Source: an uncultured Phycisphaeraceae bacterium
GTDB lineage: Bacteria > Planctomycetota > Phycisphaerae > Phycisphaerales > UBA1924
Length of the DNA: 32,990 nt
Assembly: GCA_964611775.1 (NCBI GenBank)
Contig: CAZTEE010000001.1
Location: 1-32,990, forward strand
Direction of reading: 5' to 3'
The notes beneath the pieces were generated by a model. The model was not told the origin of the DNA and searched no databases. It worked only from the letters and a program-made list of their open reading frames with translations. Made by a program: the position numbers and the translations under genes. Below, piece by piece: positions 7,308 to 32,990 of this stretch; the stretch's first letter is position 1; the number at the start of each line of letters is the position of its first letter.

Positions 7308-7361
7308 GTCCGACCCTCGCGTGTGGCGTCCGGGCCGCGGCCGGGCCGCCGCCCGACGGGA

Positions 7362-7961
7362 TCAGCGGTAGAACTCGATGACCAGATTCATGTTGATGTC
7401 GAACGGGACCGCGTCGGCGCTCGGCTCGGCGATCATCCGCGCCTTGAGTTCCGACGGGTTCACGTCCAGCCAGTCCGGCGTGATGTGCCCCGCCATCGAC
7501 TCCATCATGTCGCGAACCACCGCGTGCAAGCCCGGCTTGAGCGTGATCTCATCGCCGGGACGGAGAGTGCAACTCGGCCTGTCGGTTTTGCGACCGTTCA
7601 ACAGAACATGCCCGTGAGCCACGAACTGCCGCGCCTGCCAGATCGTCCGCGCAAAGCCCGCCCGGCGGACGGCGTTGTCCAGACGGGATTCGAGCAGCTG
7701 GAGCAGCACCTCGCCGGTGTTGCCCTTGCTTCGCTGCGCCTCGGCCATCGTCTTGCGGAACTGCTTCTCGAGCAGGTTGTAGTGGTAACGGAGCTTCTGC
7801 TTCTCGACGAGGCGCACGCCGTACTCACGCAAGCGCCGGCCGCGGTATCCGTGCATCCCGGGCGGCGACAACTGACGCCGGGCCGTGTGCTTGGGGATAT
7901 CCGCGATCGGGACTCCGACGCGACGCGACAGTTTGACCTTGGGGCCGAGATAACGTGCCAT
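7362..7961 (-). CDS. rpsD: 30S ribosomal protein S4
   Basis: The N-terminus MARYLGPKVKLSRRVG and the S4 RNA-binding domain (RLDNAVRRAGFARTIWQARQFVAHGHVLLNG) are present. The gene is 199 aa and monocistronic here. Confidence 0.97.
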   Translation of the reverse strand: MARYLGPKVKLSRRVGVPIADIPKHTARRQLSPPGMHGYRGRRLREYGVRLVEKQKLRYHYNLLEKQFRKTMAEAQRSKGNTGEVLLQLLESRLDNAVRRAGFARTIWQARQFVAHGHVLLNGRKTDRPSCTLRPGDEITLKPGLHAVVRDMMESMAGHITPDWLDVNPSELKARMIAEPSADAVPFDINMNLVIEFYR

Positions 7962-8186
7962 CCGCGATTCTCCGTCCTGCCGGTCCGTGCGCCATCGCGC
8001 CCGCCGGGGTGCTCGGGGTGTATCTGAGCGATCGGCGGGGTTGCCCGCGACTGCGGCCCGCTTGCCTTGCCGATCCGGTCCGATCCGTTGTCAGCCCCGT
8101 ATTGAACCGCCTCACACCGGAATCGTCAAATCGGGTCGGAATCGGCGCCCACGCGTTGCTCCGGCCCGCTACGTCGGCTAGCGTTC

Positions 8187-13974: not shown

Positions 13975-15453
13975 TTGAAAAAAGCTCAATCGAGAATCGT
14001 CGCGGCGGTCGTGACGCTCGCGACGCCGTACCTCGCGCACGCGCAATGGATCGACTTCACCAACCAGACCGCCACGCGGCTGATTCTAACACAGGTCGGA
14101 ATGAACGACGGCGTCGAGAAAGACCTCGCTTCCGGCGATCTCAACAAGAACGGCTGGACAGACCTTGTCGTCGTCCGCAAGATCCCGTTCTCGACGCCCG
14201 GCGCGCTCGTCGATGTGCTCCTGATGAACGAGAACGGCGTGCTAACCGATCGCACCGCGGAGTTCGCGCCGGGCTTCATCGACAACCCCACGGACGCCCG
14301 CGACGTCGTCATCGCGGATTTCAACGGCGACGGCTGGGACGATGTGCTCATCGTCAACACGTTCAATGATCAGCCGCGGCTGTATATAAACCGCGGCAAC
14401 GACGCGCAGGGGAACTGGCTTGGTCTTGCAGATGAATCTTCGTCGCGATTGCCGGTGATCGGACCGCTGCAGAATCAGGCGCCCGGCCCGCTGTTCTGCG
14501 CCGCCGCGGTCGGCGATCTCACGGGCGACGGCGCGCTGGATATTTTCTTTTCCAACTACAACCAGTTCCAAGCAGGCGCGACGGAGGACGTGCTGCTTAT
14601 AAACGACGGGACCGGCGTGTTCACCGATCAGACCGTCGCAAGGATGGGCAACCGCAGATTCTCCGCGTTCAACACCGGATCAATCTTCGCGGACGCCGAC
14701 GGCGACGGCTCGCTGGACATCATCAAGATTTCGACGCTGTTTCCCGTCTCGCCGTGGAACGAGGTCGGCGTGTTCGTGATCCCGAACGACGGCGCCGGCG
14801 GTTTCACCACATCGGCCGTCACCCGGCTGGACTCCGACACCCCGTACATGGTCGTCGCCGGGCTTTTCAACGGCGACGGGCTGACCGATTTCTATGTCGT
14901 CGACGACGAGGAGGACAGCGTTCACTTCGCGTCGCTCGCCGGTGGAAGCCTCTCGTACACGCGATCGCAGATCTCGGCGCCGCGCACGTCCCGGCTCGGC
15001 GGCAATGTAAAACAGGCGGACCTCGACGGCGACGGGTTCCCCGACATCGGCGTCGGGCCGGTAGATACCGACATCGCCAACTGCACCGGGCCGTTCGCCG
15101 AGCAGTTCAGCCTGCTCCGCAACGACGGCGCCGGGGGATTCGATGACCCGTTCCCCGTCGGCAGCCCGATCGATCTCCGCCCGCACGACTTTGAGTTCAT
15201 GGACGTCAACGGCGACGGCCTGCTCGACATCGTCATGGGCCTATGCACCGGGTGGGCCGTGCTGATCCAGGACACCCCGGTCTCGGCATGCACACCCGAT
15301 CTTAATTCGGACGGGTCTGTCGACGGCGTCGATCTGCTGATCCTCCTCTCGGCGTGGGGTAACGGCGCGGGCGCGGAAGACCTCAACGGCGACGGCGTCG
15401 TTGATGGGGTGGACCTGCTGATCCTGCTATCCGCGTGGGGCGACTGCGGCTGA
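13975..15453 (+). CDS. secreted FG-GAP/VCBS-repeat (beta-propeller) protein with two C-terminal dockerin-like repeats
   Basis: The start is TTG, with signal peptide MKKAQSRIVAAVVTLATPYLAHAQ. Repeated Ca-binding loops are present: DLNKNGWTDLVVV, FNGDGWDDVLIV, GDLTGDGALDIFF, DADGDGSLDIIK, FNGDGLTDFYVV, DLDGDGFPDIGV and DVNGDGLLDIVM. The C-terminus has DLNSDGSVDGVDLLILLSAWG and DLNGDGVVDGVDLLILLSAWG. Confidence 0.85.
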   Translation: MKKAQSRIVAAVVTLATPYLAHAQWIDFTNQTATRLILTQVGMNDGVEKDLASGDLNKNGWTDLVVVRKIPFSTPGALVDVLLMNENGVLTDRTAEFAPGFIDNPTDARDVVIADFNGDGWDDVLIVNTFNDQPRLYINRGNDAQGNWLGLADESSSRLPVIGPLQNQAPGPLFCAAAVGDLTGDGALDIFFSNYNQFQAGATEDVLLINDGTGVFTDQTVARMGNRRFSAFNTGSIFADADGDGSLDIIKISTLFPVSPWNEVGVFVIPNDGAGGFTTSAVTRLDSDTPYMVVAGLFNGDGLTDFYVVDDEEDSVHFASLAGGSLSYTRSQISAPRTSRLGGNVKQADLDGDGFPDIGVGPVDTDIANCTGPFAEQFSLLRNDGAGGFDDPFPVGSPIDLRPHDFEFMDVNGDGLLDIVMGLCTGWAVLIQDTPVSACTPDLNSDGSVDGVDLLILLSAWGNGAGAEDLNGDGVVDGVDLLILLSAWGDCG

Positions 15454-15467
15454 ACGGCGCGGCGTGA

Positions 15468-16502
15468 TCAGGTCGCGCCGACGGTCAGCGGCGTGGCGCC
15501 GTAGACCTCGGCGGTGATCTCCGGCGGCGTGACGCGGATGCGCCGCTGCGACGGGTCTACGCCCGCGTTGCGCATGATGTCCTTGAGCGACTTTGGGATC
15601 TGGAACTCGACGTCCTCGTTCACCGTGGTGCGGAGTTCGATCGTCCCGCCGTGGGTTTCGACCAGCCGCTTGCACACATCCGCGACGAGGTACTCCGGTG
15701 CGCTGGCGCCGGCGGTGACGAGCACGGTCTGGTCCGCGTGGAACCACGATGGGTCGAGTTCCGACACGTCGTCTATGAGATAGGCGGGGACGCCCTGGTG
15801 CTCGGCGATCTCGGTCAGGCGTTTCGAGTTCGACGAGTTCTGCGAGCCGACGACCAGCACAAGGTCGCACTCCGGGGCGAACTCGCGCACGGCCGCCTGG
15901 CGGTTCGTCGTCGCGTAGCAGATGTCGCTCGTCGGCGGCGCCTTGATGTTCGGGAACGCTTCCTTGAGCGCGGAGATAATCACCTCGGCGTCGTCGACGC
16001 TGAGCGTCGTCTGCGTCAGATATGTAAGTTTGTACGGGTCGTGGATGGTGAGCGTGGGGATGTCGTCGGGCGATTCGACGATCTGGATCGAGTCGGGCGC
16101 CTCGCCGCGTGTGCCGACGACCTCCTGGTGGTCGGCGTGGCCGATGAGGAGGATCTGGTACCCCTGGCGTGCGTAGCGGATCGCCTCCATGTGGACCTTG
16201 GTGACGAGCGGGCACGTCGCGTCGATGGTGGTCAGGCTGCGTTCGCGGGCGGTGGAGCGGACGGTGGGCGAGATGCCGTGGGCGCTGAAGATTACGATGG
16301 CGCTCTCGGGGACTTCGCTCACGTCCTCGACGAAGACCACGCCGCGTTCCTCGAATCGGCGTACGACGTGCTTGTTGTGGACGATCTCGTGGAAGACGTA
16401 GATCGGTTCGTCCGGGCATAGCGCGAGGACCTGGTCGACTACTTCGATCGCCATGCCGACGCCGGCACAGAAGCCGCGGGGGTTCGCGAGGAGGATGCGC
16501 AT
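15468..16502 (-). CDS. ispH: 4-hydroxy-3-methylbut-2-enyl diphosphate reductase
   Basis: Derived from ORF 15468..16790, trimmed to the ATG at 16502. The N-terminus is MRILLANPRGFCAGV. HEIVHN, SAHG and the conserved Cys in IDATCPLVTKVH are present. An alternative ATG lies at 16547. Confidence 0.92.
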   Translation of the reverse strand: MRILLANPRGFCAGVGMAIEVVDQVLALCPDEPIYVFHEIVHNKHVVRRFEERGVVFVEDVSEVPESAIVIFSAHGISPTVRSTARERSLTTIDATCPLVTKVHMEAIRYARQGYQILLIGHADHQEVVGTRGEAPDSIQIVESPDDIPTLTIHDPYKLTYLTQTTLSVDDAEVIISALKEAFPNIKAPPTSDICYATTNRQAAVREFAPECDLVLVVGSQNSSNSKRLTEIAEHQGVPAYLIDDVSELDPSWFHADQTVLVTAGASAPEYLVADVCKRLVETHGGTIELRTTVNEDVEFQIPKSLKDIMRNAGVDPSQRRIRVTPPEITAEVYGATPLTVGAT

Positions 16503-16632
16503 CGTTGGCTCCGGTCGGGGCTGTTCGGTCGTTGCGTCGGTCGGCATTAGGTCGGCGTTCGGTCGGCGAGTAGGGCGGGCGGCTCGACGATCCGCGCCGG
16601 GTGAGGGATGATACTCGCCGACGCCGGGGATA

Positions 16633-17682
16633 GTGCGGCGGGCGACGGAGAGCATCGTGACGCAGCCGACAACCATCGAGAACCCGGCGGAAGTGCGACG
16701 CGGCGGCGTGCTCGCCGACTTCCCCGCCGACGACGCCGGCCTGCCGATCCCGCCCGAACCGCCCACGCTCCCCGACGCGGTCGCGTACACCAGATCCCTC
16801 GCGACCGGCCACTACGAGAACTTCAGCGTGCTGTCGCGGCTAGTCCCGGCGGCGCTGCGTGACGATTTCGCCGCGGTGTATGCCTTCTGCCGATGGGCTG
16901 ATGATCTCGGCGACGAGACCGGCGCCGGGGACGCCGGCCGGGCCGAGGCGGCGAGGCTCCTCGCGTGGTGGCGCGGCGAACTCGACAACTGCTTCCGCTC
17001 GGCGCGCGGCGAAAACGAAAATCAGCAACGCCACCACGTCTTCGTCGCGCTCGCGGACACCGCCCGGCGTCGGGGCCTCGCGCCCGAACATTTCCATCAC
17101 CTCATCGACGCGTTCGAGATGGACCAGCGCGTCACACGCTATGAAACTTGGGACGATGTGCTCGGCTACTGCAAACTCAGCGCGGACCCCGTCGGGCGGA
17201 TCGTGCTCGCGCTTGCCGGGCATGACGGATCGAAGCCCGGCGACGCCGAACGTTTCGCCATGTCCGACGCGACGTGCTCGGCGTTGCAACTTATCAACCA
17301 CTGGCAGGACGTTCGGCGTGACCTCATCGAGCGTGACCGCGTGTACCTGCCCGCCGCAGAAACCGGCCTGAGCGCGGCGGATCTCCGCGACATGCTCGAT
17401 CGCGGCGACGACCCGGCGAGCCGAGTGCGCTACATCCGCGCGGTCCGGCCGCTGGTCGAGCGGACGCGCGAGATGTTCCGCGCCGGGCGACCGCTGCCGA
17501 AGAATCTCGAACCTTCGATCGCGCCGGTGGTTCGGCTCTTCGGCGTGGGGGGGGAGGCTACTCTCGCCGCGGTCGAGCGCATCGGGTGCGCGACGTTGTG
17601 GCAGCGGCCGCGGCTTACTCGAGCGAAGAAACTGCTGCTGGTCGGGACCGCGGCGGCGCGGGCGGCGCTGTCTCAGCGATAG
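16633..17682 (+). CDS. hpnC: hydroxysqualene synthase (squalene synthase-like, HpnC type)
   Basis: The HpnC-type signature HYENFSVLSRLVP is present, along with the Asp-rich motif YAFCRWADDLGDE and a second motif LQLINHWQDVRRD. The start is uncertain: GTG at 16633, with several in-frame GTGs downstream. Confidence 0.85.
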   Translation: MRRATESIVTQPTTIENPAEVRRGGVLADFPADDAGLPIPPEPPTLPDAVAYTRSLATGHYENFSVLSRLVPAALRDDFAAVYAFCRWADDLGDETGAGDAGRAEAARLLAWWRGELDNCFRSARGENENQQRHHVFVALADTARRRGLAPEHFHHLIDAFEMDQRVTRYETWDDVLGYCKLSADPVGRIVLALAGHDGSKPGDAERFAMSDATCSALQLINHWQDVRRDLIERDRVYLPAAETGLSAADLRDMLDRGDDPASRVRYIRAVRPLVERTREMFRAGRPLPKNLEPSIAPVVRLFGVGGEATLAAVERIGCATLWQRPRLTRAKKLLLVGTAAARAALSQR

Positions 17683-17711
17683 CTCGGCGGCCGCGTTAGA
17701 CTGCACGGTTC

Positions 17712-18635
17712 ATGAGTTCGCTATCAGCCCCATCGCCGACCGACGAGCACGCCGCCGCTTATGCGTGGTGCCGGGATGTAGCGCGGACCCGGGCCCGAAA
17801 TTTTTATTACGGGTTGTGCCTGACGCCGGAACCCCGGCGTAGCGCGGTCTACGCGGTGTACGCGTGGATGCGCATCGGTGATGATCTTGTTGACGACGCC
17901 GGGGACGACGACGCGAAGCGCGAGGCGCTCGCCGCGTTTCGTGCGGCTACCGCAAACGTTCTCGACGGCATGAGCGCCGAGGAGCAGCCGATCGGCGCGC
18001 CCGAGATGTGGGCCGCGTTCGCCGACACGGTGCGCGCATTCGGCGTTGAAGCGCGCGACATCGACGCCATGCTCGCGGGCCTCGGCGAGGATCTCGACCA
18101 CGCCGGGTACGACACGCTCGACGACCTCCAGCGGTACTGCGCCCGCGTCGCGTCGAGTGTCGGTCGCGTGTGCGTGACGATCTGGGGGCTGCGTGACGGG
18201 ATGTCGATGGAAGACGCCGTGCGGCTCGCGGATCGGCGCGGGGTGGCGTTCCAGTTGACGAACATTCTCAGGGATTTCGCCGAGGATTTCGACGACGGGC
18301 GGGTTTATCTCCCGCGCGAATCTTTAGAGCGAGCAGGGATTACGCCCGGGCAGTTGCGGCGCTGGGACGAGCCGGCGGCGTGCGAGCGATTGGTGAACGA
18401 GGTTGCTGCGGCGGCGCGATCGGATTTCGAAGCGTCGGCGCCGCTCGAGGCGATGATCGATCCCGCGTGCGCGCCGACGCTCTGGGCGATGACGCGGATC
18501 TACGCCGGGCTTCTCGAGAAGATCGAGGATCGGCCGGCGCGGATCGTCGGTGAGGCGCGCATCCGGCTTCAATCGCTGCACAAAGCCGGGATCGCCGTGC
18601 GGGCGCTGGCGCGGAGCAAGCGCGGGCGATGGTGA
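17712..18635 (+). CDS. hpnD: presqualene diphosphate synthase (HpnD type)
   Basis: RARNFYYGLCLTP..R.AVYAVYAWMRIGDDLVDD is present, together with the second Asp-rich region AFQLTNILRDFAEDFDDGRVYLP. The gene lies 29 nt downstream of hpnC. Confidence 0.88.
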   Translation: MSSLSAPSPTDEHAAAYAWCRDVARTRARNFYYGLCLTPEPRRSAVYAVYAWMRIGDDLVDDAGDDDAKREALAAFRAATANVLDGMSAEEQPIGAPEMWAAFADTVRAFGVEARDIDAMLAGLGEDLDHAGYDTLDDLQRYCARVASSVGRVCVTIWGLRDGMSMEDAVRLADRRGVAFQLTNILRDFAEDFDDGRVYLPRESLERAGITPGQLRRWDEPAACERLVNEVAAAARSDFEASAPLEAMIDPACAPTLWAMTRIYAGLLEKIEDRPARIVGEARIRLQSLHKAGIAVRALARSKRGRW

Positions 18636-20011
18636 AGCGAAACCGCGCGGTGAAGTCGGCGCTCGTCGTCGGTGGCGGGATCGCCGGGATCGCCGCGGCG
18701 TTGCGGCTCGCCGAGGCCGGGGTCGCAGTAACCTTGCTCGAAACAAGGAAAAAACTCGGCGGCCGCGCCACGAGTTTCGACGACGCGCGCACCGGCGAGC
18801 GACTCGACAACTGCCAGCACATCGCGATGGGCTGCTGCACGAACTACCTCGACCTGCTCGGGCGGCTCGGCGTCGCGGGCATGGTCGAATGGTCGCGTGC
18901 GATCTGGTGGGTCGAGCGCGGCGGTCGACGCAGCGCGATGCGCCCGGGATTCACGCCCGCGCCCGCGCATTTCGCCGGATCATTTATTACCGCGAAGTTT
19001 CTTACGCTTGAAGAGAAGATCGCCGTCGCGGGCGCGATGCTCGTCCTGACCCGGGCGGCGCTAGATCGGCTCGAACACGAGACGTTCGCGGCGTGGCTGG
19101 ATCGGCACGATCAGCCGGCGGGCGCGGCCGAGAAGTTCTGGGCGCCGATCGTCGCGAGCGCGTGCAACGGCTGGCCCGAGCGGGTCGCGGCGTCCGCAGC
19201 GGCGCACGTCTTTCAGGAAGGGTTCCTCGCGCACCGCGACGCGGCGATGATCGGCGTCCCCTCGGCGCCGCTCGTGGAACTCTACGACTCCGCCGAATCA
19301 GCGATCGCACGCGCGGGCGGCGCGGTCCGGCTCGGCGCGTCCGTCGCGCGCATCGACCCGAACGAGGTCGAGACCGCCGACGGCGAACGGCTCGGCGCCG
19401 ATGTTGTTATATGCGCCGCACCATTCGAACGCGCTCTCAAGATCGTCGCGCACGACGTGCAGCGCGCCGACATCAGATTCGCCCGGCTCGCCCGGCTCGA
19501 ACACAGCCCGATCCTCGGCGTGCATCTTACATACGACCGGACAGTCCTCGACCTCCCCCACGCCGCGATGGTCGGGACGGGGACGCAGTGGGTCTTCCGC
19601 AAGGACGACGCGGGGACGCGCGTGCACGCTGTCATCAGCGCCGCGGACGGGTGGGTCGATCTCGGCGAGACGGAGATCGTCGAACGCGTCGCGGCGGATA
19701 TCGCGGCGTGCTTCCCCGCGGCGCGCGCGGCGCGGCTGCTCTCTGGCAGACCTGTCAAGGAGAAACGCGCGACGTTCCTGCCTACGGTCGAGTCGATCGC
19801 GGCGAGGCCGACGGCCACCGGAACCAGCGGGCTGATCCTCGCGGGCGATTACACACGCACGGGCTGGCCGTCGACGATGGAGGGCGCGACGCGGAGCGGG
19901 TACATCGCGGCGGCCGCGGCGCTGGGGCGCGATGAGGCGTCGCCGGGGAGGCCGCCGCTGAAGTCGGCGCCGGCATATCGTGCGGCGCGAGCGCTGGCCG
20001 GGGTCGAGTGA
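18629..20011 (+). CDS. hpnE: hydroxysqualene dehydroxylase (FAD-dependent amine-oxidase fold)
   Basis: The Rossmann motif is VVGGGIAGIAAALRLAEAGVAVTLLE..KKLGGRA. The C-terminal region LILAGDYTRTGWPSTMEGATRSG is present. The ATG overlaps the hpnD stop (ATGGTGA). Confidence 0.85.
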   Translation: MVKRNRAVKSALVVGGGIAGIAAALRLAEAGVAVTLLETRKKLGGRATSFDDARTGERLDNCQHIAMGCCTNYLDLLGRLGVAGMVEWSRAIWWVERGGRRSAMRPGFTPAPAHFAGSFITAKFLTLEEKIAVAGAMLVLTRAALDRLEHETFAAWLDRHDQPAGAAEKFWAPIVASACNGWPERVAASAAAHVFQEGFLAHRDAAMIGVPSAPLVELYDSAESAIARAGGAVRLGASVARIDPNEVETADGERLGADVVICAAPFERALKIVAHDVQRADIRFARLARLEHSPILGVHLTYDRTVLDLPHAAMVGTGTQWVFRKDDAGTRVHAVISAADGWVDLGETEIVERVAADIAACFPAARAARLLSGRPVKEKRATFLPTVESIAARPTATGTSGLILAGDYTRTGWPSTMEGATRSGYIAAAAALGRDEASPGRPPLKSAPAYRAARALAGVE

Positions 20012-24851: not shown

Positions 24852-25850
24852 ATGACTCGGCTATGGGCGCCCATGCTCGCGCTCGGGCTGGCGATCGCGC
24901 TGGCCGTCGTCGCCTGGCTCGGCTTCGGGACGGTCCTCGAAACCGTCCGCCGCGCCGGCTGGGGCGTGCTGATCCTCGCGCCCATCTATCTCGCGCCGTT
25001 GCTGCTAGCGAGTCTGTCGTGGAGCCAACTCCTGCCGCATGGCCGTAGGCCCGGCGTCGGACGTTCGATCCTGCTTACATGGGTCGGGCTGGCGGTGAAC
25101 TGGCTCCTCCCCGTCGGGCAGGTCGGCGGGGAGGTCGTCAAGGCGCGTTGGGCGACGCGCCTCGGGACGCCCGGCCCGGACGCCGCCGCCTCCGTCGTGG
25201 CCGACAAAACATTACAGGTCGCAACCCAAATTATATTCGCGATCGTCGGCGTCGCCCTCTTCGCCTGGGCCTCGACGGACACCGGCGTCCTCGTCGGGGC
25301 GATCGTCGGGACCGGCGCGTTCACCATCGGCGTCGTCGGATTCGTCGTCATACAACGCCGGGGGATCTTCCGAACAACCGCAACACTCGCGAGACGACCG
25401 CTCGAAAAACTCGGCGTCGCCGGCCTCCACGAGGACGCCGCCAGGGTCGACGAAGCACTCCGCGCGATCTACGCCGACCGGGCCTCGCTCGCGCGGGCTG
25501 CATTATTAAGAATGGCCTTCCGGCTCACGCTCGTCATCGAGACCGCCGTCGCGCTCGAACTGCTCGGCCACCCCGTCGGGCTGGCGAAGATCATCGCGTT
25601 CGAGGCGCTCGGGCAGACCGTCCGCGCCGGCGCGTTCCTGATCCCCGGCGGGATCGGCGTGCAGGAGGGCGCGTTCGTCGCGCTCGCCGTCGGACTCGGC
25701 ATCCCCGCCCCCGTCGGGCTGGCCGTGTCGCTGTGCAAACGCGCCCGGGAACTGCTCGTCGGCGTCCCCGGGCTGGTCGTCTGGCAGGCGCAAGTCGGGC
25801 GCGCCGCGTTCACGCCGAAGCCGGGCCGACATGCTCGCGATGGAATGTAA
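24852..25850 (+). CDS. LPG-synthase-TM / flippase-like membrane protein (UPF0104, HpnL-like)
   Basis: Polytopic protein of 332 aa. Its features are typical of the lysylphosphatidylglycerol-synthase TM-region family: VNWLLPVGQVGGEVVKARW and FLIPGGIGVQEGAFVALAV. It starts 15 nt after the dsbD stop. The HpnL assignment rests on family resemblance plus neighbourhood. Confidence 0.7.
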   Translation: MTRLWAPMLALGLAIALAVVAWLGFGTVLETVRRAGWGVLILAPIYLAPLLLASLSWSQLLPHGRRPGVGRSILLTWVGLAVNWLLPVGQVGGEVVKARWATRLGTPGPDAAASVVADKTLQVATQIIFAIVGVALFAWASTDTGVLVGAIVGTGAFTIGVVGFVVIQRRGIFRTTATLARRPLEKLGVAGLHEDAARVDEALRAIYADRASLARAALLRMAFRLTLVIETAVALELLGHPVGLAKIIAFEALGQTVRAGAFLIPGGIGVQEGAFVALAVGLGIPAPVGLAVSLCKRARELLVGVPGLVVWQAQVGRAAFTPKPGRHARDGM

Positions 25851-26706
25851 GAAATGCTCCCGCCGTCCCGTCCGGATCTTCCAGCGGAGGGTAGTGCCCG
25901 ACGCGCTCGTCTAGTTGATACAGCGGCGCCTCGGGCAGCAACTCCTTCCATATCCGAGGCACGTCCTCCCCCGCGACCGGGTCCGCAGCCCCGTTGATCA
26001 GGCACATCGGGATCGACGCCGATTCGAGCGCCCCGACCCAGCGCGAACGCCGGGTCGCGCGCTCACGCAGATACCGAAGCGCGTACGGGACAGTCCGCTG
26101 GCCGGCGTCGTGCCGCAATAGAGTCCAGATAGCGCGGAAGTCTTCTTCTGCAGGCGGGCGAAACGTGCCGAACGCCCGGCCGAGTTTATTTCTGAACACC
26201 GGATACGGCGTCGGGGTGAAGCGCGTCATCAACGGGCCGATCGGCGAGAGCAGAAGTTTCTGCGTTGTTGTCGGGCGTGTTCCTTCTACGAACAGCCCGC
26301 CGTTGACGAAGCACACCGAGATCGGCCGAAACCCGGCTGTCCGTGAATTCCGCTCGATAGATCGCGCGAGAAGTTCCTGCGCCGTAGTTACGCCGTAGGC
26401 GTGCGCGAGAACGTGCGCGCGATCCACGCCGAGATCCGCGAGGAGACTTTCTACGAGGTCGGTGAGATGGTCGATGCCGTAGACCGCGCCGCGCGGCTTC
26501 TCCGAAAACCCCGAGCCGAGCAGATCGGGCGCGATCACGTCGTGCGCCGCAGTGAGCGCGGGCCACATGCGGTGGAATCCCCACGACGCGGTGGGATAGG
26601 CGTGCAGGAGCAGCAGCGGCTCGCCCGATCCGGCGCGAATAAAGAAGAGCCGTCTGCCGCGGACGATCCGAGTTTCACCGAGTGTTCGCCAAGTTTCCGG
26701 TGTCAT
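25810..26706 (-). CDS. MEST-like alpha/beta-fold protein with non-canonical nucleophile elbow (HAYG)
   Basis: Derived from ORF 25810..26997, trimmed to the ATG at 26706. Alpha/beta-hydrolase landmarks are present: LLLLHAYPTASW, DLLGSGFSEKP, the elbow VLAHAYGVTTAQELL, NGGLFVEGTRP, NGAADPV and the C-terminal VGHYPPLEDP. Confidence 0.8.
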   Translation of the reverse strand: MTPETWRTLGETRIVRGRRLFFIRAGSGEPLLLLHAYPTASWGFHRMWPALTAAHDVIAPDLLGSGFSEKPRGAVYGIDHLTDLVESLLADLGVDRAHVLAHAYGVTTAQELLARSIERNSRTAGFRPISVCFVNGGLFVEGTRPTTTQKLLLSPIGPLMTRFTPTPYPVFRNKLGRAFGTFRPPAEEDFRAIWTLLRHDAGQRTVPYALRYLRERATRRSRWVGALESASIPMCLINGAADPVAGEDVPRIWKELLPEAPLYQLDERVGHYPPLEDPDGTAGAFLTFHREHVGPASA

Positions 26707-26756
26707 GCTAGGATCAAGGATATCGGCGGCGTCGATCGCGCGGGCGCCGAGCACGC

Positions 26757-27935
26757 ATGACACACTCGCCGCACGACACACGGGAAGGTTTGGTGACGCA
26801 TCGGCCGCGCGGCGGGAGCGCTCACCCTCTCTTCGGCGCGAACACGCGAACTCTGCTGGCGCTGCTGCGCCGGCACGGGATCCGTCCCGGCGACCGCGCC
26901 GGCGTGCTGCTCGGGGCGCTCGCGTCGAGCCTCGCCCGCGCGCCGATCTCGCTTTGCGAACGCGGGCTGGTCGCGGCCAGGGCGCCCAAGGAATCACCGG
27001 CGCCGATGTTCATACTCGGGCACTGGCGCAGCGGGACCACGCATCTATATAATATATTATCTAAATCGGGCGACTTCGCATACGTCCCGCCGCTGGCGAC
27101 GGGGCTGCCGTGGGACGTGCTGACCCTGGGCCGGGCCCTGCGGCCTTGGCTCGAACGGATGCTCCCGGGCGAGCGATTCATCGACAAAATCCCCGTCAAA
27201 CCGGACTCGCCGCAGGAGGACGAGGCGGCGCTCGCCAACATGCAGCCGGTGTCCTTCTACCACGGGCTTTATTTCCCACGACGGCTGCGCGAAGAGGTCG
27301 AACGCGGCGTGTTCTTTGATGGTCTCGACGCATGCGCGGTCGCGCTGTGGGAACGCCGCTTCCAGCACTTCATAGATAAGATAAGAATCCTCCAGCCCGG
27401 CGGGCGCGTCGTTGTCAAAAACCCCGTTTACACCGCCCGGGTCGCGGCGATGGATCGGCTGTGCCCGGGGGCGCTCTTCGTGCACATCGCCCGCGATCCG
27501 CGCGATGTGTTCTTCTCCATGCGCGGCTTTTATTCGAAACTTCTCGAAGCCTACGCGCTCCAGCCCTACTCGCCCGACGGCGTGGACGAACTTATATTTA
27601 CGGTCTACGAGCGGATGATGGACCGCCTGGAGGCCGACGCCGCGACGCTGCCCGCGGGCAGGTTCATCGAGATCCGGTACGACGATCTGACCGCGGCGCC
27701 GATCGAGTGTCTGCGCACGATCGGCAGCCGACTCGGGCTGCACGAGGAGATCGAGCACGGCGTCCCGGCGTTCCGGGAATACCTGGATTCCGTGTGGAAA
27801 TACGAGAAAAACAGGCACGATCGGCCCGCGGCGGATGTCGCGATGGTCGAGCGTCGCCTGGCACGCCAAATCGAAGGCTTCGAGGCGCGGCGGTCCGGTA
27901 TTATTAATAATAATGCGGCGCGCGTGCCCGCATGA
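26757..27935 (+). CDS. PAPS-dependent sulfotransferase family protein
   Basis: The 5'-PSB loop is PMFILGHWRSGTTHLYNIL. The 3'-PB-like region is VVKNPVYTARV...HIARDPRDVFFS. The N-terminal extension of about 83 aa (HPLFGANTRTLLALLRRHG...) is seen in this bacterial sulfotransferase family. The gene is divergent from the hydrolase-like gene, with a 50-bp gap. Confidence 0.85.
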   Translation: MTHSPHDTREGLVTHRPRGGSAHPLFGANTRTLLALLRRHGIRPGDRAGVLLGALASSLARAPISLCERGLVAARAPKESPAPMFILGHWRSGTTHLYNILSKSGDFAYVPPLATGLPWDVLTLGRALRPWLERMLPGERFIDKIPVKPDSPQEDEAALANMQPVSFYHGLYFPRRLREEVERGVFFDGLDACAVALWERRFQHFIDKIRILQPGGRVVVKNPVYTARVAAMDRLCPGALFVHIARDPRDVFFSMRGFYSKLLEAYALQPYSPDGVDELIFTVYERMMDRLEADAATLPAGRFIEIRYDDLTAAPIECLRTIGSRLGLHEEIEHGVPAFREYLDSVWKYEKNRHDRPAADVAMVERRLARQIEGFEARRSGIINNNAARVPA

Positions 27936-28927
27936 CCGACGTCTCGCTTGTCACCGGCGGCAGCGGCTTCATCGGTTGGTGGGTAGTCCGCACTCTCGTC
28001 GAACGCGGAGAACGCGTCCGTGTGTTCGACCTGTGCGAACCGCCCGAGCGGATCGACGGTGTCGAGTTCGTGCGCGGCTCGGTTAATGATCCGGTGAGCC
28101 TCCGCGCTGCGATGGGCGGGATCCAAAGTGTGCATCATCTCGCGGCGACGGCGGGGTTGTGGAGCCGGGATCGCGGCGTTTACGAACGCGTAAACCATCT
28201 CGGGACCTGCGCGACTCTGGACGCGGCCGCTGCGTGTGGTGTGCGATGTTTCGTGCATGTATCGAGCGCGACGGCGCTTGCTACGAAGCACGCCCGGGCG
28301 GAGCGAGTGTCACGGGACGGCCGGCCGTGGCTCCCCGATCCCGACGGGGCGCTTGGTTCTTATTCGAGGTCGAAGATTCTCGCGGAGCGTGCCGCGTACG
28401 CCGCGAATGCAGACGGGATGTCGGTCGTGGTGGCAACGGTGACGACGCCGCTCGGCCCCGGCGATCGCACGCCGACGCCGCCGACACAACTATTGATTGA
28501 TCTCTTGCGCGGACGGATCCCCGCGATGCTCACTATGACGTGGCGCGTGGCGGATGTGCGCGACACGGCGCACGCGATCGTCGCGGCGGGCGAACTCGGC
28601 GAGCCGGGCCGGCGGTATGTGATCCAAGGCGAGGCGTGGACGACGGATCGGCTGCTGGAATGTGTCGCGTGGGCGAGCGGGTCGCGGATGCCGAAGCTCC
28701 GGGCGCCGTACGCGATCGCTCTGGCGACGGCGCACGCGGGAGAGGCTGCGGCGCGCCTGACAGGGCGGGCGCCGAAGGCCTCGATCGAGGGTGTGCGGCT
28801 TGCGCGGGCGACTATCGATTTATCCGGCGAACCCGGCGCGGGTGATCTCGGCGTCACGATCAGGCCGGCGGATGAATCGATTCGCGACGCGATCGCCTGG
28901 CTGCGCGACAGCGGCATGGTGTCATGA
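27932..28927 (+). CDS. NAD(P)-dependent extended SDR (epimerase/dehydratase or 3beta-HSD-like, HpnA-like)
   Basis: The cofactor motif is VTGGSGFIGWWVV and the catalytic motif is YSRSK. The ATG overlaps the sulfotransferase stop (ATGA). Confidence 0.85.
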   Translation: MTDVSLVTGGSGFIGWWVVRTLVERGERVRVFDLCEPPERIDGVEFVRGSVNDPVSLRAAMGGIQSVHHLAATAGLWSRDRGVYERVNHLGTCATLDAAAACGVRCFVHVSSATALATKHARAERVSRDGRPWLPDPDGALGSYSRSKILAERAAYAANADGMSVVVATVTTPLGPGDRTPTPPTQLLIDLLRGRIPAMLTMTWRVADVRDTAHAIVAAGELGEPGRRYVIQGEAWTTDRLLECVAWASGSRMPKLRAPYAIALATAHAGEAAARLTGRAPKASIEGVRLARATIDLSGEPGAGDLGVTIRPADESIRDAIAWLRDSGMVS

Positions 28928-28938
28928 CCCGCTCTGCG

Positions 28939-31548
28939 TCATGAGCGGTTCGTCGTCGCTCGCGTTGGCGCGCGGAACGTAAGAAGCGCGGGCAGCACGA
29001 TCAGCGTGCTTACGAGCATCGACGCCATGCCGATGCTGAGGACAAGACCCATGCTCGCCATCCCGGGATGGGGACTGAATGCGAGCGACCCGAAGCCGGC
29101 GATCGTGGTGAGCGCGCTGAAGAGCACGCCGCGTGCTGTGGCGGATTCGAGCAGGCGGTCGTGCGTCCCCGCCTTGGAGCGGTGAACGAGGTGGATCGCG
29201 CTGTCGATGCCTACACCCATCAGCAGCGGGAGCGCGATGACATTGGCGAAGTTGAAGGGCTGATCGAGGATCACCATCGCAGCGACAGTCGCAGCGCCCC
29301 CGATCAGGAATGGGGCGAGCGTTTCGATCGCCGTCAACGCGCTGCGGAACGCGAGCAGCGCGATTATCGCGACGGCGATGAACGCCGACAGCAGCGCTTG
29401 GCGGAACGCGGAGATAACGGCGTCTCCGGATTCTGTGTGCGATATCGCCGTGCCGACGACCCGGTCGCTCGTGCCGCGAACTGATGCGATGAACTCGCGC
29501 ATCGCGCGGGGGTTGCCGAGATCGGCGCTCGGGAAGGCTTCGACCCGGTGCGTTCCGTCATCGCTGAGCCAGCGCTCGCGGAGCGACGCCGGCAGCGAAT
29601 CTCGCTCGATGAAGTTCGCGGTGAGCGAGTGACGGATCCGCTCGACGAGCAGCGGGAACGTGCCCAGCCAGGCTTGGCGGAGACGGTCGGCGGCGCGGCG
29701 CGCGTCGGCGGGCGGCATGGTGCGCACCTGCTCGATCCAGCCCATGAGGCGATCACTCAGGCCCACCGCGGCTTCGCGGATCATCCCCGGCGTGTCAGGG
29801 GAATCGGATGTTTTAGATAAGGCATCATTTAATGTTTGAAGCGACCCGAGCGTGTCCGCGAGTGTCGGCGCGGGTGCGGGATCGGCGAGCGGCTCAAGCG
29901 TCGGGCCGAGGATGAGCGCGAGATCGTCGACGAGAGCGAGTTTCGCGTCCTGATCCTCTGGGATGAACGAGCCAAGCCAGACCGCTTTATCGACATGTGG
30001 GGATTCCGCGAGCCGATCGCGTATGCCCGCGGCGGCGTGTTCGTCCCGCGCGAGGATGGTCAGGCTCCAGTGATCCGAGCCGTGGGTCGCGCGGAGTTCC
30101 CGGAGCGTGCGGACGGACTCGGAACGTTGGTCCCGGAGGTTCAAAGGGTCAGTGTCGAAACGTACGCCCGGAATGAGTGCGGCGGCAATGATTGTGATGA
30201 TCGCCGCGGAGATCAGTATCGGTGCGCGATGCCTTTCCGGCGCGTGGATCAGCCAGAGAAGACGGCGACTGTTTACGGGCTTCGGCGGGGTCTTCCATCG
30301 GCTGGGCAGGACCGCCATAAGCGCTGGGAAGAGCGTGAGTGTGGTGATGAGGCTGATAACCATGCCGGTCCCGGCGATTATTCCGAGTTCGGACACGCCG
30401 TCGAACGATGTCGGGATGAAGACATAGAAGCCGACCATAGTCGTGATCGCGCAGATGCAGAGCGAGCCGAGCACGTCGCGGACGGCGCAGCGGAGCGCGG
30501 CCGGCGGCGTGAAGCCCTCGGCGCGTCTTGCGCGGATGTTCAGCGCGAGGTGGATCGCGAAGTCCGCGCCGAGTCCGACATATAGCACCCCGAACGCGAC
30601 CGAGATCAGATTCAGGCGTCCGACGGCGAATGTTGCGAATCCGAGCGTGAGCATCAGCCCGACGGCGAGTGTGAGGAGCGACGCGTTAACAAGCGCGAAG
30701 GACCGCATCGCTAAGAAGAGCAACCCGGCGACTAGGACCACCGAGAGCGGACCGGCGATGCGCATCCCGCTCAGCACGGAGTCCAGTTCGTCGCGCTCGA
30801 GCGCGGTCGGGCCGGTGACGCGAACCCGGGCGCCGAGCGATGCAAGATCCCGGCCGACCTCGGCGTCGTCCACAGCGGCGACGGCGTCGGCTTTGCTCGA
30901 GATGACTGTTGTGTCGAGGTTCGGACGCAGAAGGACAATGCGTTGCGTCTCTGGTTCATCAGCGGGATCGTCGGCGACGGCGCGGCGCCAGGAGAGCTCG
31001 CGCACCGGCCCGGTCCCGGCGGCGTCGGGGATCGTCTCTGCCAACGAGCGGATCAGACGGGCTAGCGTGTCCGCGGGAGCGTCGATGGCGCGGTCGAGCG
31101 CTTCGGCGAGCAGGTCGGACAGGCCTCGAACTGTGGTGTCCGCGACGAGCCTGCCGAGGAACGGCTGAGCGTCGGCGAGTCGCGTCGAGAGCCGGTCCAG
31201 TTCTTCCGCGGAAAGAAATAGCAACCCGTGCCGATCGAAGAACTCTCCGCCGTCGGGCCGGTACGCCTCGGCGAATAGATCGGTGCGCGTAGTTAGATCG
31301 GCGGCGATGAGGTCAGCGGCCTGTTCGGCGCGTTCCGGGGTCGCTGCATCTATCACCGCCACCAGCGATGACTTGGCGCGCGGGAACCTATTCTCATAAT
31401 CGATCTGGTTCCGCTGGAAATCGAGTTCGGATGAGATCAGGTCTTCGGTGCGTGTGTCGATGCGAAGTGTGCGTGCCGCGTGCACGCCGGCGGCGGCGGC
31501 GAGCGAGAGGAACAGCAGCACGATCAGCGCGGAGAGCCGACGGTTCAC
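28939..31548 (-). CDS. hpnN: RND/MMPL-family lipid exporter, HpnN-like (hopanoid transporter family)
   Basis: 869 aa with a GTG start. The N-terminal region RIDTRTEDLISSELDFQRNQIDYENRFP...LVAVIDAATPERAEQAADLIAADL...GGEFFDRHGLLFLSAEEL matches the HpnN-type periplasmic domain. There are two 6-TM MMPL halves. Confidence 0.85.
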   Translation of the reverse strand: MNRRLSALIVLLFLSLAAAAGVHAARTLRIDTRTEDLISSELDFQRNQIDYENRFPRAKSSLVAVIDAATPERAEQAADLIAADLTTRTDLFAEAYRPDGGEFFDRHGLLFLSAEELDRLSTRLADAQPFLGRLVADTTVRGLSDLLAEALDRAIDAPADTLARLIRSLAETIPDAAGTGPVRELSWRRAVADDPADEPETQRIVLLRPNLDTTVISSKADAVAAVDDAEVGRDLASLGARVRVTGPTALERDELDSVLSGMRIAGPLSVVLVAGLLFLAMRSFALVNASLLTLAVGLMLTLGFATFAVGRLNLISVAFGVLYVGLGADFAIHLALNIRARRAEGFTPPAALRCAVRDVLGSLCICAITTMVGFYVFIPTSFDGVSELGIIAGTGMVISLITTLTLFPALMAVLPSRWKTPPKPVNSRRLLWLIHAPERHRAPILISAAIITIIAAALIPGVRFDTDPLNLRDQRSESVRTLRELRATHGSDHWSLTILARDEHAAAGIRDRLAESPHVDKAVWLGSFIPEDQDAKLALVDDLALILGPTLEPLADPAPAPTLADTLGSLQTLNDALSKTSDSPDTPGMIREAAVGLSDRLMGWIEQVRTMPPADARRAADRLRQAWLGTFPLLVERIRHSLTANFIERDSLPASLRERWLSDDGTHRVEAFPSADLGNPRAMREFIASVRGTSDRVVGTAISHTESGDAVISAFRQALLSAFIAVAIIALLAFRSALTAIETLAPFLIGGAATVAAMVILDQPFNFANVIALPLLMGVGIDSAIHLVHRSKAGTHDRLLESATARGVLFSALTTIAGFGSLAFSPHPGMASMGLVLSIGMASMLVSTLIVLPALLTFRAPTRATTNRS

Positions 31549-31600: not shown

Positions 31601-32440
31601 TCATGGTCGGGGGTCGGGCGAGGGCGGTGACTCGGGCGTGTTGGGCTGATCGTTCTCGTCGTCGAAGATATCGTCGGGGAGTTCGTCGAAGACGGTGTCG
31701 TCGCCGTCCCGTTTTATCGACTGGATAATCTCCCATTGTTTTTGCATGTAACCGCTTTTGACGAAGGAGTATGGTTCGATCGCTTCACGTACGCGGCGTA
31801 CGGAGTCGCGGCGTGACTCGGCTTCGCTGACGGCTCCGACGCCGAGGGTGGCGGTGCGTTCGAGCCCCGAGCCGAGGATTCCGACTGGGCTGAGGATGAT
31901 GCGCATCGGTATGTCGGGCAGGCCGGCGACGCTGGTGGGTCCGATGAGTGGCAGCACGAGATACGGCCCGGGTCCGAGTCCCCAGACGCCCGCTGTGACG
32001 CCGAAGTTTTGTCTGCGATGTTCGAGGCCGAGTGTTGTGGCGGGGTCTGCGATCCCGCCGAACCCTACGGTTGTGTTAGTGATGAAGCGGAGTGTGTCGC
32101 GTCCGGCCCAGCCGAAACGCGCCTGCAGCAGATCGTTGATGATCACGAAAGGCATGGAGAGGTTTCGAAAGAAGTTGCGCACTCCGTAGCGGACTGGTTC
32201 GGGCGTGACGCCGCGATATACGTTCGAGATCGGCTCGGCGACGTGACGGTCGAGGGCCATGTTGGCGCCGAACATCACGCGGTTGGCGGGTTCGAGGGGG
32301 TCGGGCGGGTTTGTCCAGCGTTCGCGCGAAGCGCAGCCGGCGCTCGCGGCGATAATGACGGCGAGTGCCAGGCGATTGAGACGTGCGTGAATGATCGCGC
32401 GGCAATGTCGGCGTGATCGCGGAGGGGGGAAGTCAGTCAT
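31601..32440 (-). CDS. mlaA: MlaA/VacJ-family outer-membrane lipoprotein
   Basis: The lipobox is IIAASAGC. The VacJ core is DPLEPANRVMFGANMALDRHVAEPISNVYRGVTPEPVRYGVRNFFRNLSMPFVIINDLLQ. There is an acidic, Pro-rich C-terminal tail. The ATG overlaps the stop of the upstream MlaC-like gene (ATGACTGA). Confidence 0.9.
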   Translation of the reverse strand: MTDFPPPRSRRHCRAIIHARLNRLALAVIIAASAGCASRERWTNPPDPLEPANRVMFGANMALDRHVAEPISNVYRGVTPEPVRYGVRNFFRNLSMPFVIINDLLQARFGWAGRDTLRFITNTTVGFGGIADPATTLGLEHRRQNFGVTAGVWGLGPGPYLVLPLIGPTSVAGLPDIPMRIILSPVGILGSGLERTATLGVGAVSEAESRRDSVRRVREAIEPYSFVKSGYMQKQWEIIQSIKRDGDDTVFDELPDDIFDDENDQPNTPESPPSPDPRP

Positions 32441-32990
32441 CTTCCTTCTCGCCGCGAGAGAATCCGCGGATTTTTACTTCGATCGTGGAGAGGAGCGCAT
32501 CGAACCCGTCTTTTTTGATGACGGCGTCGTACTGCGAGCGTTTGAGGGCGATGTCGTTCACGCCGTCGACCGCGACTCCGACAACGAGCCAGCGCCCGCC
32601 TTGCTCGCGGAGTTGGTAGTCGAAGCGGTGTGTGTCGCCGGCGCCGGTCGTGAGTGTCGAACGCACCACCGCTACGCGGTCGCGCGGCGTGGTCACGCTT
32701 TCGGTCTTGAACGCGTGCCCGGAGAACGAGTCGAACTCCGCGGCATAGTTGGCGACGCTGTACCGACTGAATGTGTCGATGAACCGGTCGCGGTCGGCGG
32801 GCGGGGCGTCGCTCCAGCGCGAGCCGAGCACCAGTCGGGCGATCGTAGGGAAGTCGAAGAGCGCACGGACTACAGGGTCGAGCGTCGCGAGCCGGTCGTC
32901 GAGGAGCACCCTGGCGCGCACGCGGGCCTCGACGTGCGGGGCATCCTGGAAGGCTGCGCGATGCTCCGGACCGAGCGCCGCGAAGACGAG
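32433..32990 (-). CDS. MlaC/Ttg2D (toluene-tolerance) family periplasmic lipid-binding protein, HpnM-like; 5' end runs off the window
   Basis: The family pattern is DFPTIARLVLGSRWSDAPPADRDRFIDTFSRYSVANYA...VVGVAVDGVNDIALKRSQYDAVIKKDGFDALLSTIE. The frame stays open to position 32990 (LVFAALGPEHRAAFQDAPHVEAR...), so the gene is partial. Confidence 0.8.
   Translation of the reverse strand, partial: LVFAALGPEHRAAFQDAPHVEARVRARVLLDDRLATLDPVVRALFDFPTIARLVLGSRWSDAPPADRDRFIDTFSRYSVANYAAEFDSFSGHAFKTESVTTPRDRVAVVRSTLTTGAGDTHRFDYQLREQGGRWLVVGVAVDGVNDIALKRSQYDAVIKKDGFDALLSTIEVKIRGFSRGEKEDD

Follow-up and report, generated by a model that had tools for sequence, protein, structure and literature searches.

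A sulfotransferase and an HpnA-like dehydrogenase paired in and beside bacterial hopanoid genes: a candidate module for hopanoid head-group sulfation

Gene content of the locus

The window analysed here, a stretch of 32,990 nucleotides from contig CAZTEE010000001.1 of an uncultured Phycisphaeraceae bacterium, carries at positions 24852-28927 four adjoining genes, which encode HpnL, an alpha/beta-fold protein, a sulfotransferase (SULT) of the type that uses 3'-phosphoadenosine-5'-phosphosulfate (PAPS), and an HpnA-like extended short-chain dehydrogenase/reductase (SDR). Pairs of such SULT and SDR genes lie in or beside hopanoid synthesis and transport genes in six phyla, and for this reason we regard the four genes as a candidate module for the tailoring of hopanoid head groups. 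The gene calls were based on a listing of open reading frames (ORFs) together with profile searches against Pfam and NCBIfam/TIGRFAM at curated cut-offs, and comprise the following features.

24852..25850, plus strand: HpnL, membrane protein similar to the flippase domain of MprF (TIGR03476, 265.6 bits, cut-off 195.65; PF03706, 113 bits)
25810..26706, minus strand: alpha/beta-fold protein (PF00561, PF12697)
26757..27935, plus strand: PAPS-type sulfotransferase, SULT (PF13469, 99.2 bits, cut-off 27; motif GHWRSGTTHLYN)
27932..28927, plus strand: HpnA-like extended SDR (PF01370, PF01073; HpnA model TIGR03466 for the hopanoid-associated sugar epimerase, 249.4 bits, cut-off 367.65)
28939..31548, minus strand: HpnN, RND-family hopanoid exporter (TIGR03480, 872.9 bits, cut-off 751.85; NF052374, 642 bits, cut-off 1100)
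31601..32440, minus strand: MlaA-like outer-membrane lipoprotein (PF04333, 187 bits)
32433..32990, minus strand: HpnM, MlaC-like periplasmic lipid shuttle, its product cut by the window end (TIGR03481, 154.1 bits, cut-off 160.1; PF05494, 125 bits)
16633..20011, plus strand: hpnC-hpnD-hpnE squalene-synthesis operon (TIGR03464, 256 bits, cut-off 250; TIGR03465, 207.7 bits, cut-off 278.6; TIGR03467, 402 bits, cut-off 283)

A sequence-only reading of this DNA had proposed the same four genes, and the ORF listing and profile scores bear out their coordinates and families, as does the finding of HpnN, PF04333 and HpnM-type ORFs directly downstream, where it had placed an hpnN/mlaA/hpnM operon. Likewise, each of the four tight junctions that it had pointed out could be read off the sequence. 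The dsbD stop codon ends at 24836, and hpnL begins with the ATG at 24852, a spacing of 15 nt. The hpnL and alpha/beta-fold genes converge with an overlap of 41 bp (25810-25850), and 50 bp separate the divergent ATG codons of the alpha/beta-fold gene (complement 26704-26706) and the SULT gene (26757); an alternative GTG 48 nt upstream, chosen as the start in the annotation of a relative with 90% identity (L081), would leave a divergent gap of only 2 bp. Four bases, ATGA at 27932-27935, are shared by the SULT gene and the SDR gene, which are translationally coupled in this way, and 11 nt lie between the end of the SDR gene (28927) and that of the convergent, minus-strand hpnN (28939). Missing from the earlier account was hpnC-hpnD-hpnE, from which a minus-strand ispH diverges; together these genes span 15468-20011, 5 kb upstream of the module, with only a DinB-like polymerase gene, fliM and dsbD in between. 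No PAPS-synthesis gene (cysC, cysD, cysN, cysQ) was found among the scanned ORFs of the window.

Sequence and predicted fold of the sulfotransferase

The SULT is of the long form, with an N-terminal helical extension that is structured in its AlphaFold2 model (first 80 residues). Across 93 homologues with 46-90% identity to the window protein, the 5'-PSB loop GHWRSGTTH (G88-H96), the 3'-PB residues R246 and S254, and the SPQEDE motif are all invariant; from what is generally known of the fold, we take the loop, R246 and S254 to be the PAPS-binding residues. The AlphaFold2 model has a mean pLDDT of 92.8 and a pTM of 0.91, and its top 27 Foldseek matches in the Protein Data Bank (PDB) are without exception sulfotransferases or the sulfotransferase-fold retinol dehydratase. 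Judged by this conservation and by the model, the window SULT is an intact PAPS-type sulfotransferase with a confidently predicted fold. No NCBIfam model for it, or for the protein X described below, was found by the profile scan.

Mycobacterial Stf1 (2zq5) and Stf9 (2z6v) come closest among solved structures, whether compared by profile or by fold, whereas CurM/olefin-synthase domains, tyrosylprotein sulfotransferases and retinol dehydratase are clearly weaker matches. Tyrosylprotein and heparan sulfotransferases match far less well in structure than Stf1 and Stf9, and the characterised relative closest in sequence belongs to the sterol sulfotransferases (BT_0416 family); we thus rejected a polysaccharide or peptide sulfotransferase as the identity of the enzyme, in line with the expectation of the sequence-only reading that it would not group with those families.

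Conserved pairing with hopanoid genes

Homologues were collected in a search that scored 8000 candidates, with 1632 proteins at E<=1e-10, and in a scan of one genome per GTDB species, which gave at least 587 SULT-encoding stretches and from which 80 loci were fetched. In a representative library of 1.84 billion proteins, 507 sulfotransferase clusters match at E<=1e-30. The closest homologues (64-90% identity) are on Planctomycetota-type contigs, and another sizeable group, about 50% identical, belongs to Parvularculaceae, Hyphococcus, Amphiplicatus, Rhodothalassium and further taxa. Neighbouring genes were identified by tblastn with the window proteins, by all-against-all clustering of ORFs and with a wider panel of hopanoid proteins, and the counts that follow are for 83 non-redundant loci and for a distance of 10 kb from the SULT gene.

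Foremost among the neighbours is the HpnA-like SDR, which is present in 74 of the 83 loci, followed by an exported protein that we call X (58/83). Thereafter come HpnG (32/83), HpnH (31/83), HpnC and HpnD (29 and 28 of 83), HpnB (26/83), HpnE (25/83), HpnN (17/83), Shc (8/83), and HpnL and HpnM (7 of 83 each). Where the contig extended at least 8 kb to each side (full flank), 34 of 41 loci held, besides the SDR, one or more members of a hopanoid-specific panel (HpnB/C/D/E/G/H/L/M/N/Shc). Synteny with hpnN/hpnM/hpnL in relatives was the test that the sequence-only reading had set, and it is borne out in L048, L083 and others.

The order of the genes differs from phylum to phylum. In Phaeomarinobacter (L048), for instance, the SULT stands within a long hopanoid cluster that reads hpnN(-), hpnM, SULT, X, SDR, hpnB(-), hpnC, hpnD, hpnE, shc, hpnG and hpnH(-), and in which HpnB (426 bits) and Shc (814 bits) both score above their cut-offs. 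The cyanobacterial locus L075 has hpnH and then the SULT, the gammaproteobacterial loci L026 and L029 have hpnL, SDR(-) and SULT(+), and the Verrucomicrobiota loci L009 and L059 have the SULT and SDR alone. In a metagenome-assembled genome (MAG) of Bacteroidota (L095), in which the SULT is 39% identical to that of the window, the order is hpnH, GT2, SULT(-), SDR, MMPL(-), X and an alpha/beta-fold gene. Moreover, HpnL adjoins either the SULT or the alpha/beta-fold gene in nine loci (L025, L026, L029, L073, L081, L083, L084, L086 and L087). The core conserved unit from lineage to lineage is the SULT with the SDR, in a gene order that varies between phyla. In six phyla the SULT has hopanoid genes as neighbours, in orders that are independent of one another, and chance falls far short of explaining the arrangement.

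Set against this, the notion that the SULT is a mere passenger which drifted beside hopanoid genes, or is inactive, has in its favour seven full-flank loci with only the SULT and SDR. We hold it to be very improbable, given that the synteny survives rearrangement across the six phyla, that none of 93 sequences departs from the catalytic and PAPS-binding residues, and that a 4-bp overlap joins the SULT and SDR genes.

As a separate observation on gene surroundings, divergent genes for TamB and TamA lie directly upstream of SULT-X-SDR in about 29 alphaproteobacterial loci (e.g. L007 4273-9830 and L027 3951-9592), which may represent lineage synteny or a hopanoid link to outer-membrane lipid transport.

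Close Planctomycete relatives of the window

In the closest relative (L081, 90% identity), the gene order of the window is preserved throughout, from hpnCDE up to hpnM, and the HpnM homologue has 226 aa. At 70% identity (L083), the genes hpnL, alpha/beta-fold(-), SULT, SDR, hpnN(-), mlaA(-) and mlaC(-) are retained, and dsbD is replaced. At 64% (L084, L085), only hpnL, the alpha/beta-fold gene and the SULT are still together, and at 52-54% (L086, L087) hpnL, the alpha/beta-fold gene(-) and the SULT are kept with either hpnN or the SDR adjoining. The window arrangement is a Planctomycete-type variant with a stable core of hpnL, the alpha/beta-fold gene and the SULT. Of the six-to-seven-gene arrangement for which the sequence-only reading had sought conservation, close Planctomycete relatives have kept the whole, and elsewhere only the SULT and SDR core remains; its view of the module as one unit thus stands as far as the SULT and SDR are linked with hopanoid genes, but not for wide conservation of the full arrangement.

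In L084 (12992-14631) and L085 (12840-14479), an APS kinase gene and an inositol-monophosphatase/CysQ-like gene are located ~6 kb downstream of the SULT, and these could serve in PAPS supply and in the recycling of PAP. We considered dsbD as a further member of the module and rejected it, as it precedes hpnL only in L081 and L084, the closest relatives, and not in L083, L086 or L087.

Elsewhere in the window, a plus-strand gene at 13975-15453, beside the isoprenoid genes, encodes a protein that has five FG-GAP-like repeats and ends in a dockerin-type domain. A minus-strand ORF of 635 aa (5400-7307) and an overlapping ORF of 519 aa on the opposite strand (6468-8027, plus) have no match in Pfam or NCBIfam.

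Comparison of the sulfotransferase with characterised relatives

Previously studied proteins related to the SULT include BT_0416 (BtSULT), which makes cholesterol-3-sulfate, as established in vitro and by knockout, and is selective for flat steroidal ring systems (PMC9417993; PMC13449962). With the BtSULT family, represented in our comparison by the syntenic homologue from B. finegoldii and not by BT_0416 itself, the window SULT shares homology over the full length, the N-terminal extension included, with 29% identity over 311 residues (23-328; E 4e-45), along with the common motifs ILGHWRSGTT, PQE(E/D)E-AL-NM, KNP-(Y/H)T-RV and R(D/N)P--VF-S. The B. finegoldii gene, which came to light by tblastn of plasmid records, sits in a cysQ-SLC13-cysC-cysD-cysN-SULT cluster with the layout published for Bt_0411-Bt_0416. 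Both enzymes belong to the PAPS-dependent class, and BtSULT takes as its acceptor a polycyclic membrane lipid of triterpenoid origin. In contrast, BtSULT is found behind a cysQ-permease-cysC-cysD-cysN operon for PAPS, whereas the window SULT is surrounded by hopanoid genes with no PAPS genes nearby. Moreover, BtSULT acts on host sterols at the ring 3-OH, a group that hopanoids made from squalene do not have, and the two enzymes fall into different clades of a neighbour-joining tree.

With Stf1 and Stf9, the likeness lies in whole-chain structural matches (Foldseek E 3e-10 and 1e-8, TM 0.57-0.62; profile E 2e-13) and in the long form of these enzymes (about 370-410 aa), but the identity is only 15-18% and a hopanoid context is absent. 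We know of no substrate assigned to Stf1 or Stf9. One SULT homologue (P0064) is annotated at source as an 'omega-hydroxy-beta-dihydromenaquinone-9 sulfotransferase', which points to Stf3, the product of which is the sulfated menaquinone S881.

In the neighbour-joining tree (90 sequences, no bootstrap), the hopanoid-linked SULTs form one clade, with a carotenoid-linked pair as its sister, then a PKS-linked enzyme, and a BtSULT-like protein as the root. The carotenoid-linked enzymes belong to a second branch, ~36-45% identical to the window protein, which we found by tblastn of plasmid records in Azospirillum ramasamyi and Palleronia. There, the SULT genes (L093 9788-10930 on the A. ramasamyi plasmid, L092 7962-9071 on the Palleronia plasmid) end crtI-crtI-acyltransferase-GT2-sulfotransferase clusters of the C30-carotenoid glycolipid type, which also hold an aldehyde dehydrogenase gene and, in Palleronia, hpnCDE-like genes, and whose GT2 is an HpnB homologue. 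This suggests sulfated carotenoid glycolipids as the products of these clusters. The PKS-linked enzyme, from a plasmid of Gloeothece verrucosa PCC 7822 (L091 6828-8981), directly follows an NAD(P)-dependent oxidoreductase in a type I PKS cluster, so that the pairing of an oxidoreductase with a SULT recurs outside hopanoid loci. The family therefore recurs in terpenoid-lipid pathways, with sterol, C30-carotenoid and hopanoid-linked clades, plus the one PKS cluster. Wherever the gene context of a branch is informative, it belongs to lipid or polyketide synthesis, and a hopanoid acceptor for the window clade is in keeping with this.

The same relatives give some ground for a different acceptor, a non-hopanoid envelope molecule such as a glycolipid, lipid A/LPS, a squalene-derived C30 carotenoid glycoside or a quinone, whose synthesis would share with the hopanoid genes nothing but its location. 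The sister clade is found in carotenoid clusters, beside a GT2 homologous to HpnB, hpnCDE can also feed C30 carotenoids, P0064 carries the menaquinone-sulfotransferase annotation, an LpxL-like acyltransferase adjoins the alpha/beta-fold gene in L095, and TamA/TamB flank the module in the roughly 29 alphaproteobacterial loci. Nonetheless, we think such an acceptor unlikely: the hopanoid-linked SULTs form a clade of their own, and their immediate partners are HpnA-like, HpnL, HpnM, HpnN, HpnB, HpnH and Shc rather than proteins for carotenoids, LPS or quinones. A carotenoid-type locus in particular was rejected, as crtI-type genes are in 0/80 GTDB loci and the carotenoid-linked enzymes make up a separate clade.

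The partner proteins

The conserved partner of the SULT is an HpnA-like SDR, in which TGxxGxxG, S111, Y144 and K148 do not vary and beta-2 ends in an aspartate (D33) in 65 of 66 relatives. In SDRs, an aspartate in this position goes with NAD(H) over NADP(H), and the enzyme is thus probably NAD-dependent, which would favour an oxidation or epimerisation over the NADPH-dependent reduction of ribosylhopane to bacteriohopanetetrol (BHT). The oxidising or epimerising role that the sequence-only reading had assigned to the SDR fits with this aspartate, which also makes it less likely that the SDR is the missing reductase that would act on ribosylhopane with NADPH. Among solved structures, 3wj7 (134 bits) is the closest, followed by NSDHL, a sterol-4-carboxylate 3-dehydrogenase (6jkg). 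As with the window SDR, the SULT-linked SDRs all score below the HpnA cut-off (246-358 bits versus 367.65 for TIGR03466, from the window and six from other phyla). In the window, the SDR is not part of an hpnA-hpnB-hpnC-hpnD-hpnE-shc order, but its homologue is in L048, where it takes the place of hpnA ahead of hpnB-hpnC-hpnD-hpnE-shc, and also in further loci of Alphaproteobacteria.

The AlphaFold2 model of the alpha/beta-fold protein has a mean pLDDT of 94.7, and its Foldseek neighbours are haloalkane dehalogenases and epoxide hydrolases (DbeA, DhaA, CorEH; TM 0.73-0.77), which share the fold with a cap domain. None of the NCBIfam dehalogenase models is passed by the protein. It does resemble these enzymes in its fold, in an HGxP-like motif (HAYP) and in the retained His and Asp of the triad, but their Asp nucleophile (Sm-X-Asp-X-Sm) is replaced by Ala or Gly in the SULT-linked clade, and more distant members keep A-H-D-Y-G. 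The nucleophile elbow A-H-A103-Y-G is invariant in five orthologues (48-91% identity), in which H271 and D242 are also kept. Across 37 relatives, the elbow position is occupied by A in 21, G in 8 and D in 8, with H102, Y104, D242, H271 and E276 invariant. Since Ala103 stands in the place of the nucleophile, the protein is probably not a conventional hydrolase, and the alanine led us to rule out an ordinary esterase or epoxide hydrolase.

The gene for this protein adjoins HpnL and the SULT in L081, L083, L084, L086 and L087, is nearby in L029 and is part of the hopanoid cluster in L095, and the one Asp-type relative checked (L096) has an unrelated gene context. It is restricted to certain lineages, and Proteobacteria carry instead X, an exported beta-propeller protein of the PON/SGL-like kind. 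The sequence-only reading had counted the alpha/beta-fold protein, which it called MEST-like, among the genes of the module, a view that needs change in the light of its lineage restriction and of the Ala in place of the nucleophile. X is a protein of ~380 aa with a signal peptide or lipobox and four invariant cysteines, and it matches the SGL, arylesterase/PON, strictosidine-synthase and NHL families weakly but consistently; it was not found in the window by tblastn. A mutually exclusive occurrence of X and the alpha/beta-fold protein was considered and is refuted by L094 and L095, where the two genes stand side by side. In Gemmatimonadota L094 (6916-8903), the Ala-type gene overlaps an X-like gene by 4 bp, and in Bacteroidota L095 (6743-9775), it lies beside X in the hopanoid cluster and is followed by a gene for an LpxL-like lipid A acyltransferase.

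A SULT next to an alpha/beta-fold protein brings to mind the CurM/olefin-synthase enzymes, whose SULT domains sulfate a hydroxyl so that the neighbouring alpha/beta-fold thioesterase can eliminate it. By analogy, the sulfate could be a leaving group on a side-chain hydroxyl of the hopanoid, to be eliminated or displaced afterwards, with a dehydrated, unsaturated or cyclised side chain (e.g. an anhydro-BHT-type ether) as the outcome and with the alpha/beta-fold protein or X finishing the reaction. CurM/olefin-synthase domains (4gbm, 4gox) and retinol dehydratase (1x8k) are detectable PDB relatives of the SULT, the dehalogenase/epoxide-hydrolase fold is of a class built for leaving-group chemistry, and the loss of the Asp nucleophile with His271 and Asp242 kept could admit an intramolecular nucleophile or a general-base elimination; such a course would also account for no sulfated hopanoid having been reported. 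However, the minimal unit in Verrucomicrobiota and in most cyanobacterial loci is the SULT and SDR without a hydrolase, X is exported whereas PAPS chemistry is cytoplasmic, and BtSULT, the closest characterised relative, yields stable sulfate esters. The similarity to CurM and olefin synthase is weak (profile E 1e-5 to 4e-10, TM about 0.35). Unlike CurM, in addition, the window has no PKS or ACP genes, and its alpha/beta-fold protein is dehalogenase/epoxide-hydrolase-like, not a thioesterase, and lacks the nucleophile. On balance, we doubt that the sulfate is an activating group of this kind.

Proposed pathway

The reading that we prefer, and to which we give a probability of roughly 60%, is that the module tailors the head group of hopanoids and exports the product, and that its new element is a PAPS-dependent O-sulfotransferase. 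The chemistry that we infer for it would begin at the cytoplasmic face of the inner membrane, where the SDR would oxidise or epimerise a hydroxyl of an extended hopanoid head group, be this a ribosylhopane- or BHT-type polyol or a sugar attached to it. The SULT would then add a sulfate ester to the head group and so give an anionic, phosphorus-free hopanoid, which HpnL would carry across the inner membrane and which HpnN, HpnM and the MlaA-like lipoprotein would deliver to the outer membrane. The nucleophile-less alpha/beta-fold protein of the window and the exported PON/SGL-like propeller X of Proteobacteria and Bacteroidota would have accessory parts.

Such an assignment draws on a known set of hopanoid accessory proteins. 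In recent work, HpnL, HpnM and the MlaA-like protein are treated as uncharacterised hopanoid-associated proteins, with the last of these named 'HpnS' and given a proposed role in hopanoid transport, and with Mla-like transport also proposed for HpnM (bioRxiv 10.1101/2025.07.29.667474; PMC12583986). A 2025 survey of 54 Alphaproteobacteria lists hpnA, hpnB and hpnL as without an established function, saw no further candidate genes near hpn clusters and had no enzyme identified for the conversion of ribosylhopane to BHT (PMC12583986). The window shares with this classical set (hpnA, hpnB, hpnL, hpnM and hpnN with the proposed hpnS) an HpnL that passes its TIGRFAM cut-off and an HpnN that passes that of TIGR03480 but falls below that of the stricter equivalog NF052374, together with an HpnM-type protein, the MlaA-like protein and the HpnA-like SDR. 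In contrast, the published descriptions are without a SULT, a PON/SGL-like propeller or a nucleophile-less alpha/beta-fold protein. What would be new, accordingly, is the sulfation step within a hopanoid tailoring module, of which we found no earlier report.

Several points weigh against this proposal of hopanoid head-group sulfation. The roles given to HpnL, the alpha/beta-fold protein and X are guesses. In the full-text literature, we found no paper that links hopanoids with a SULT or describes a sulfated hopanoid; in the supplement of a 2025-26 preprint on hopanoid microsynteny, the SULT domain appears only as a weak, unflagged correlate. As regards hopanoid synthesis by the source organism, shc, hpnG and hpnH are absent from the window and from the adjoining +10 kb in the 90% relative, and in Planctomycetes squalene from hpnCDE can also go into C30 carotenoids. 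The target of BtSULT is the ring 3-OH, which squalene-derived hopanoids do not carry. Among the full-flank loci, 7 of 41 hold only the SULT-SDR pair with no other hopanoid gene nearby. Finally, one family, the Parvularculaceae, supplies many of the loci, so that the counts make the loci look more independent than they are; more weight attaches to the survival of the synteny through rearrangement in six phyla than to the raw counts.

Extending the proposal of head-group sulfation beyond the window, we can imagine, more tentatively and short of calling it probable, that sulfated hopanoids are made by many bacteria (marine Parvularculaceae, Phycisphaerae-type Planctomycetes, some Cyanobacteria, Verrucomicrobiota, Bacteroidota and Azospirillum) as anionic, phosphorus-free triterpenoid lipids, a bacterial counterpart of cholesterol sulfate. 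The orphan hpnA, hpnL, the nucleophile-less dehalogenase-like protein and the PON-like propeller would then make up a machinery dedicated to building, processing and flipping the head group. That these lipids escaped standard analysis would, we assume, be due to current methods favouring neutral or cationic species.

Azospirillum brasilense Sp7

According to the survey, A. brasilense Sp7 'possesses the genetic capability' for extended hopanoids, and only adenosylhopane was detected in it, with no products of periodate (Rohmer) degradation (PMC12583986). By tblastn, we located on its plasmid p1 (NZ_CP012915.1; L089 171664-196662), within 11 kb at about 181.8-192.8 kb, the genes SDR(-), SULT, X, hpnN(-), shc, hpnG and hpnH(-). 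Sulfation could explain why only adenosylhopane was detected despite a full hopanoid gene set. Low expression would also explain the survey result, and the Sp7 locus proves nothing by itself. Sp7 is, however, a cultured, tractable strain in which the prediction of sulfated hopanoids can be tested.

Significance

Hopanoids, which are major membrane lipids of bacteria, are also the most abundant of all molecular fossils, and the interpretation of these biomarkers depends on knowledge of the full range of hopanoid structures and on the genes for them. A conserved SULT in the hopanoid clusters of at least several hundred species predicts a class of head group that is absent from the literature we found, and the prediction is directly testable in a cultured and genetically tractable organism. 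It would also offer an experimental handle on hpnA and hpnL, whose functions have so far been without assignment, and it would carry the bacterial sterol sulfotransferases, a family only recently recognised, beyond gut Bacteroides and into endogenous terpenoid lipids. If true, the bacteria concerned would possess a non-phosphorus anionic lipid, plausibly useful in seawater that is rich in sulfate and poor in phosphate.

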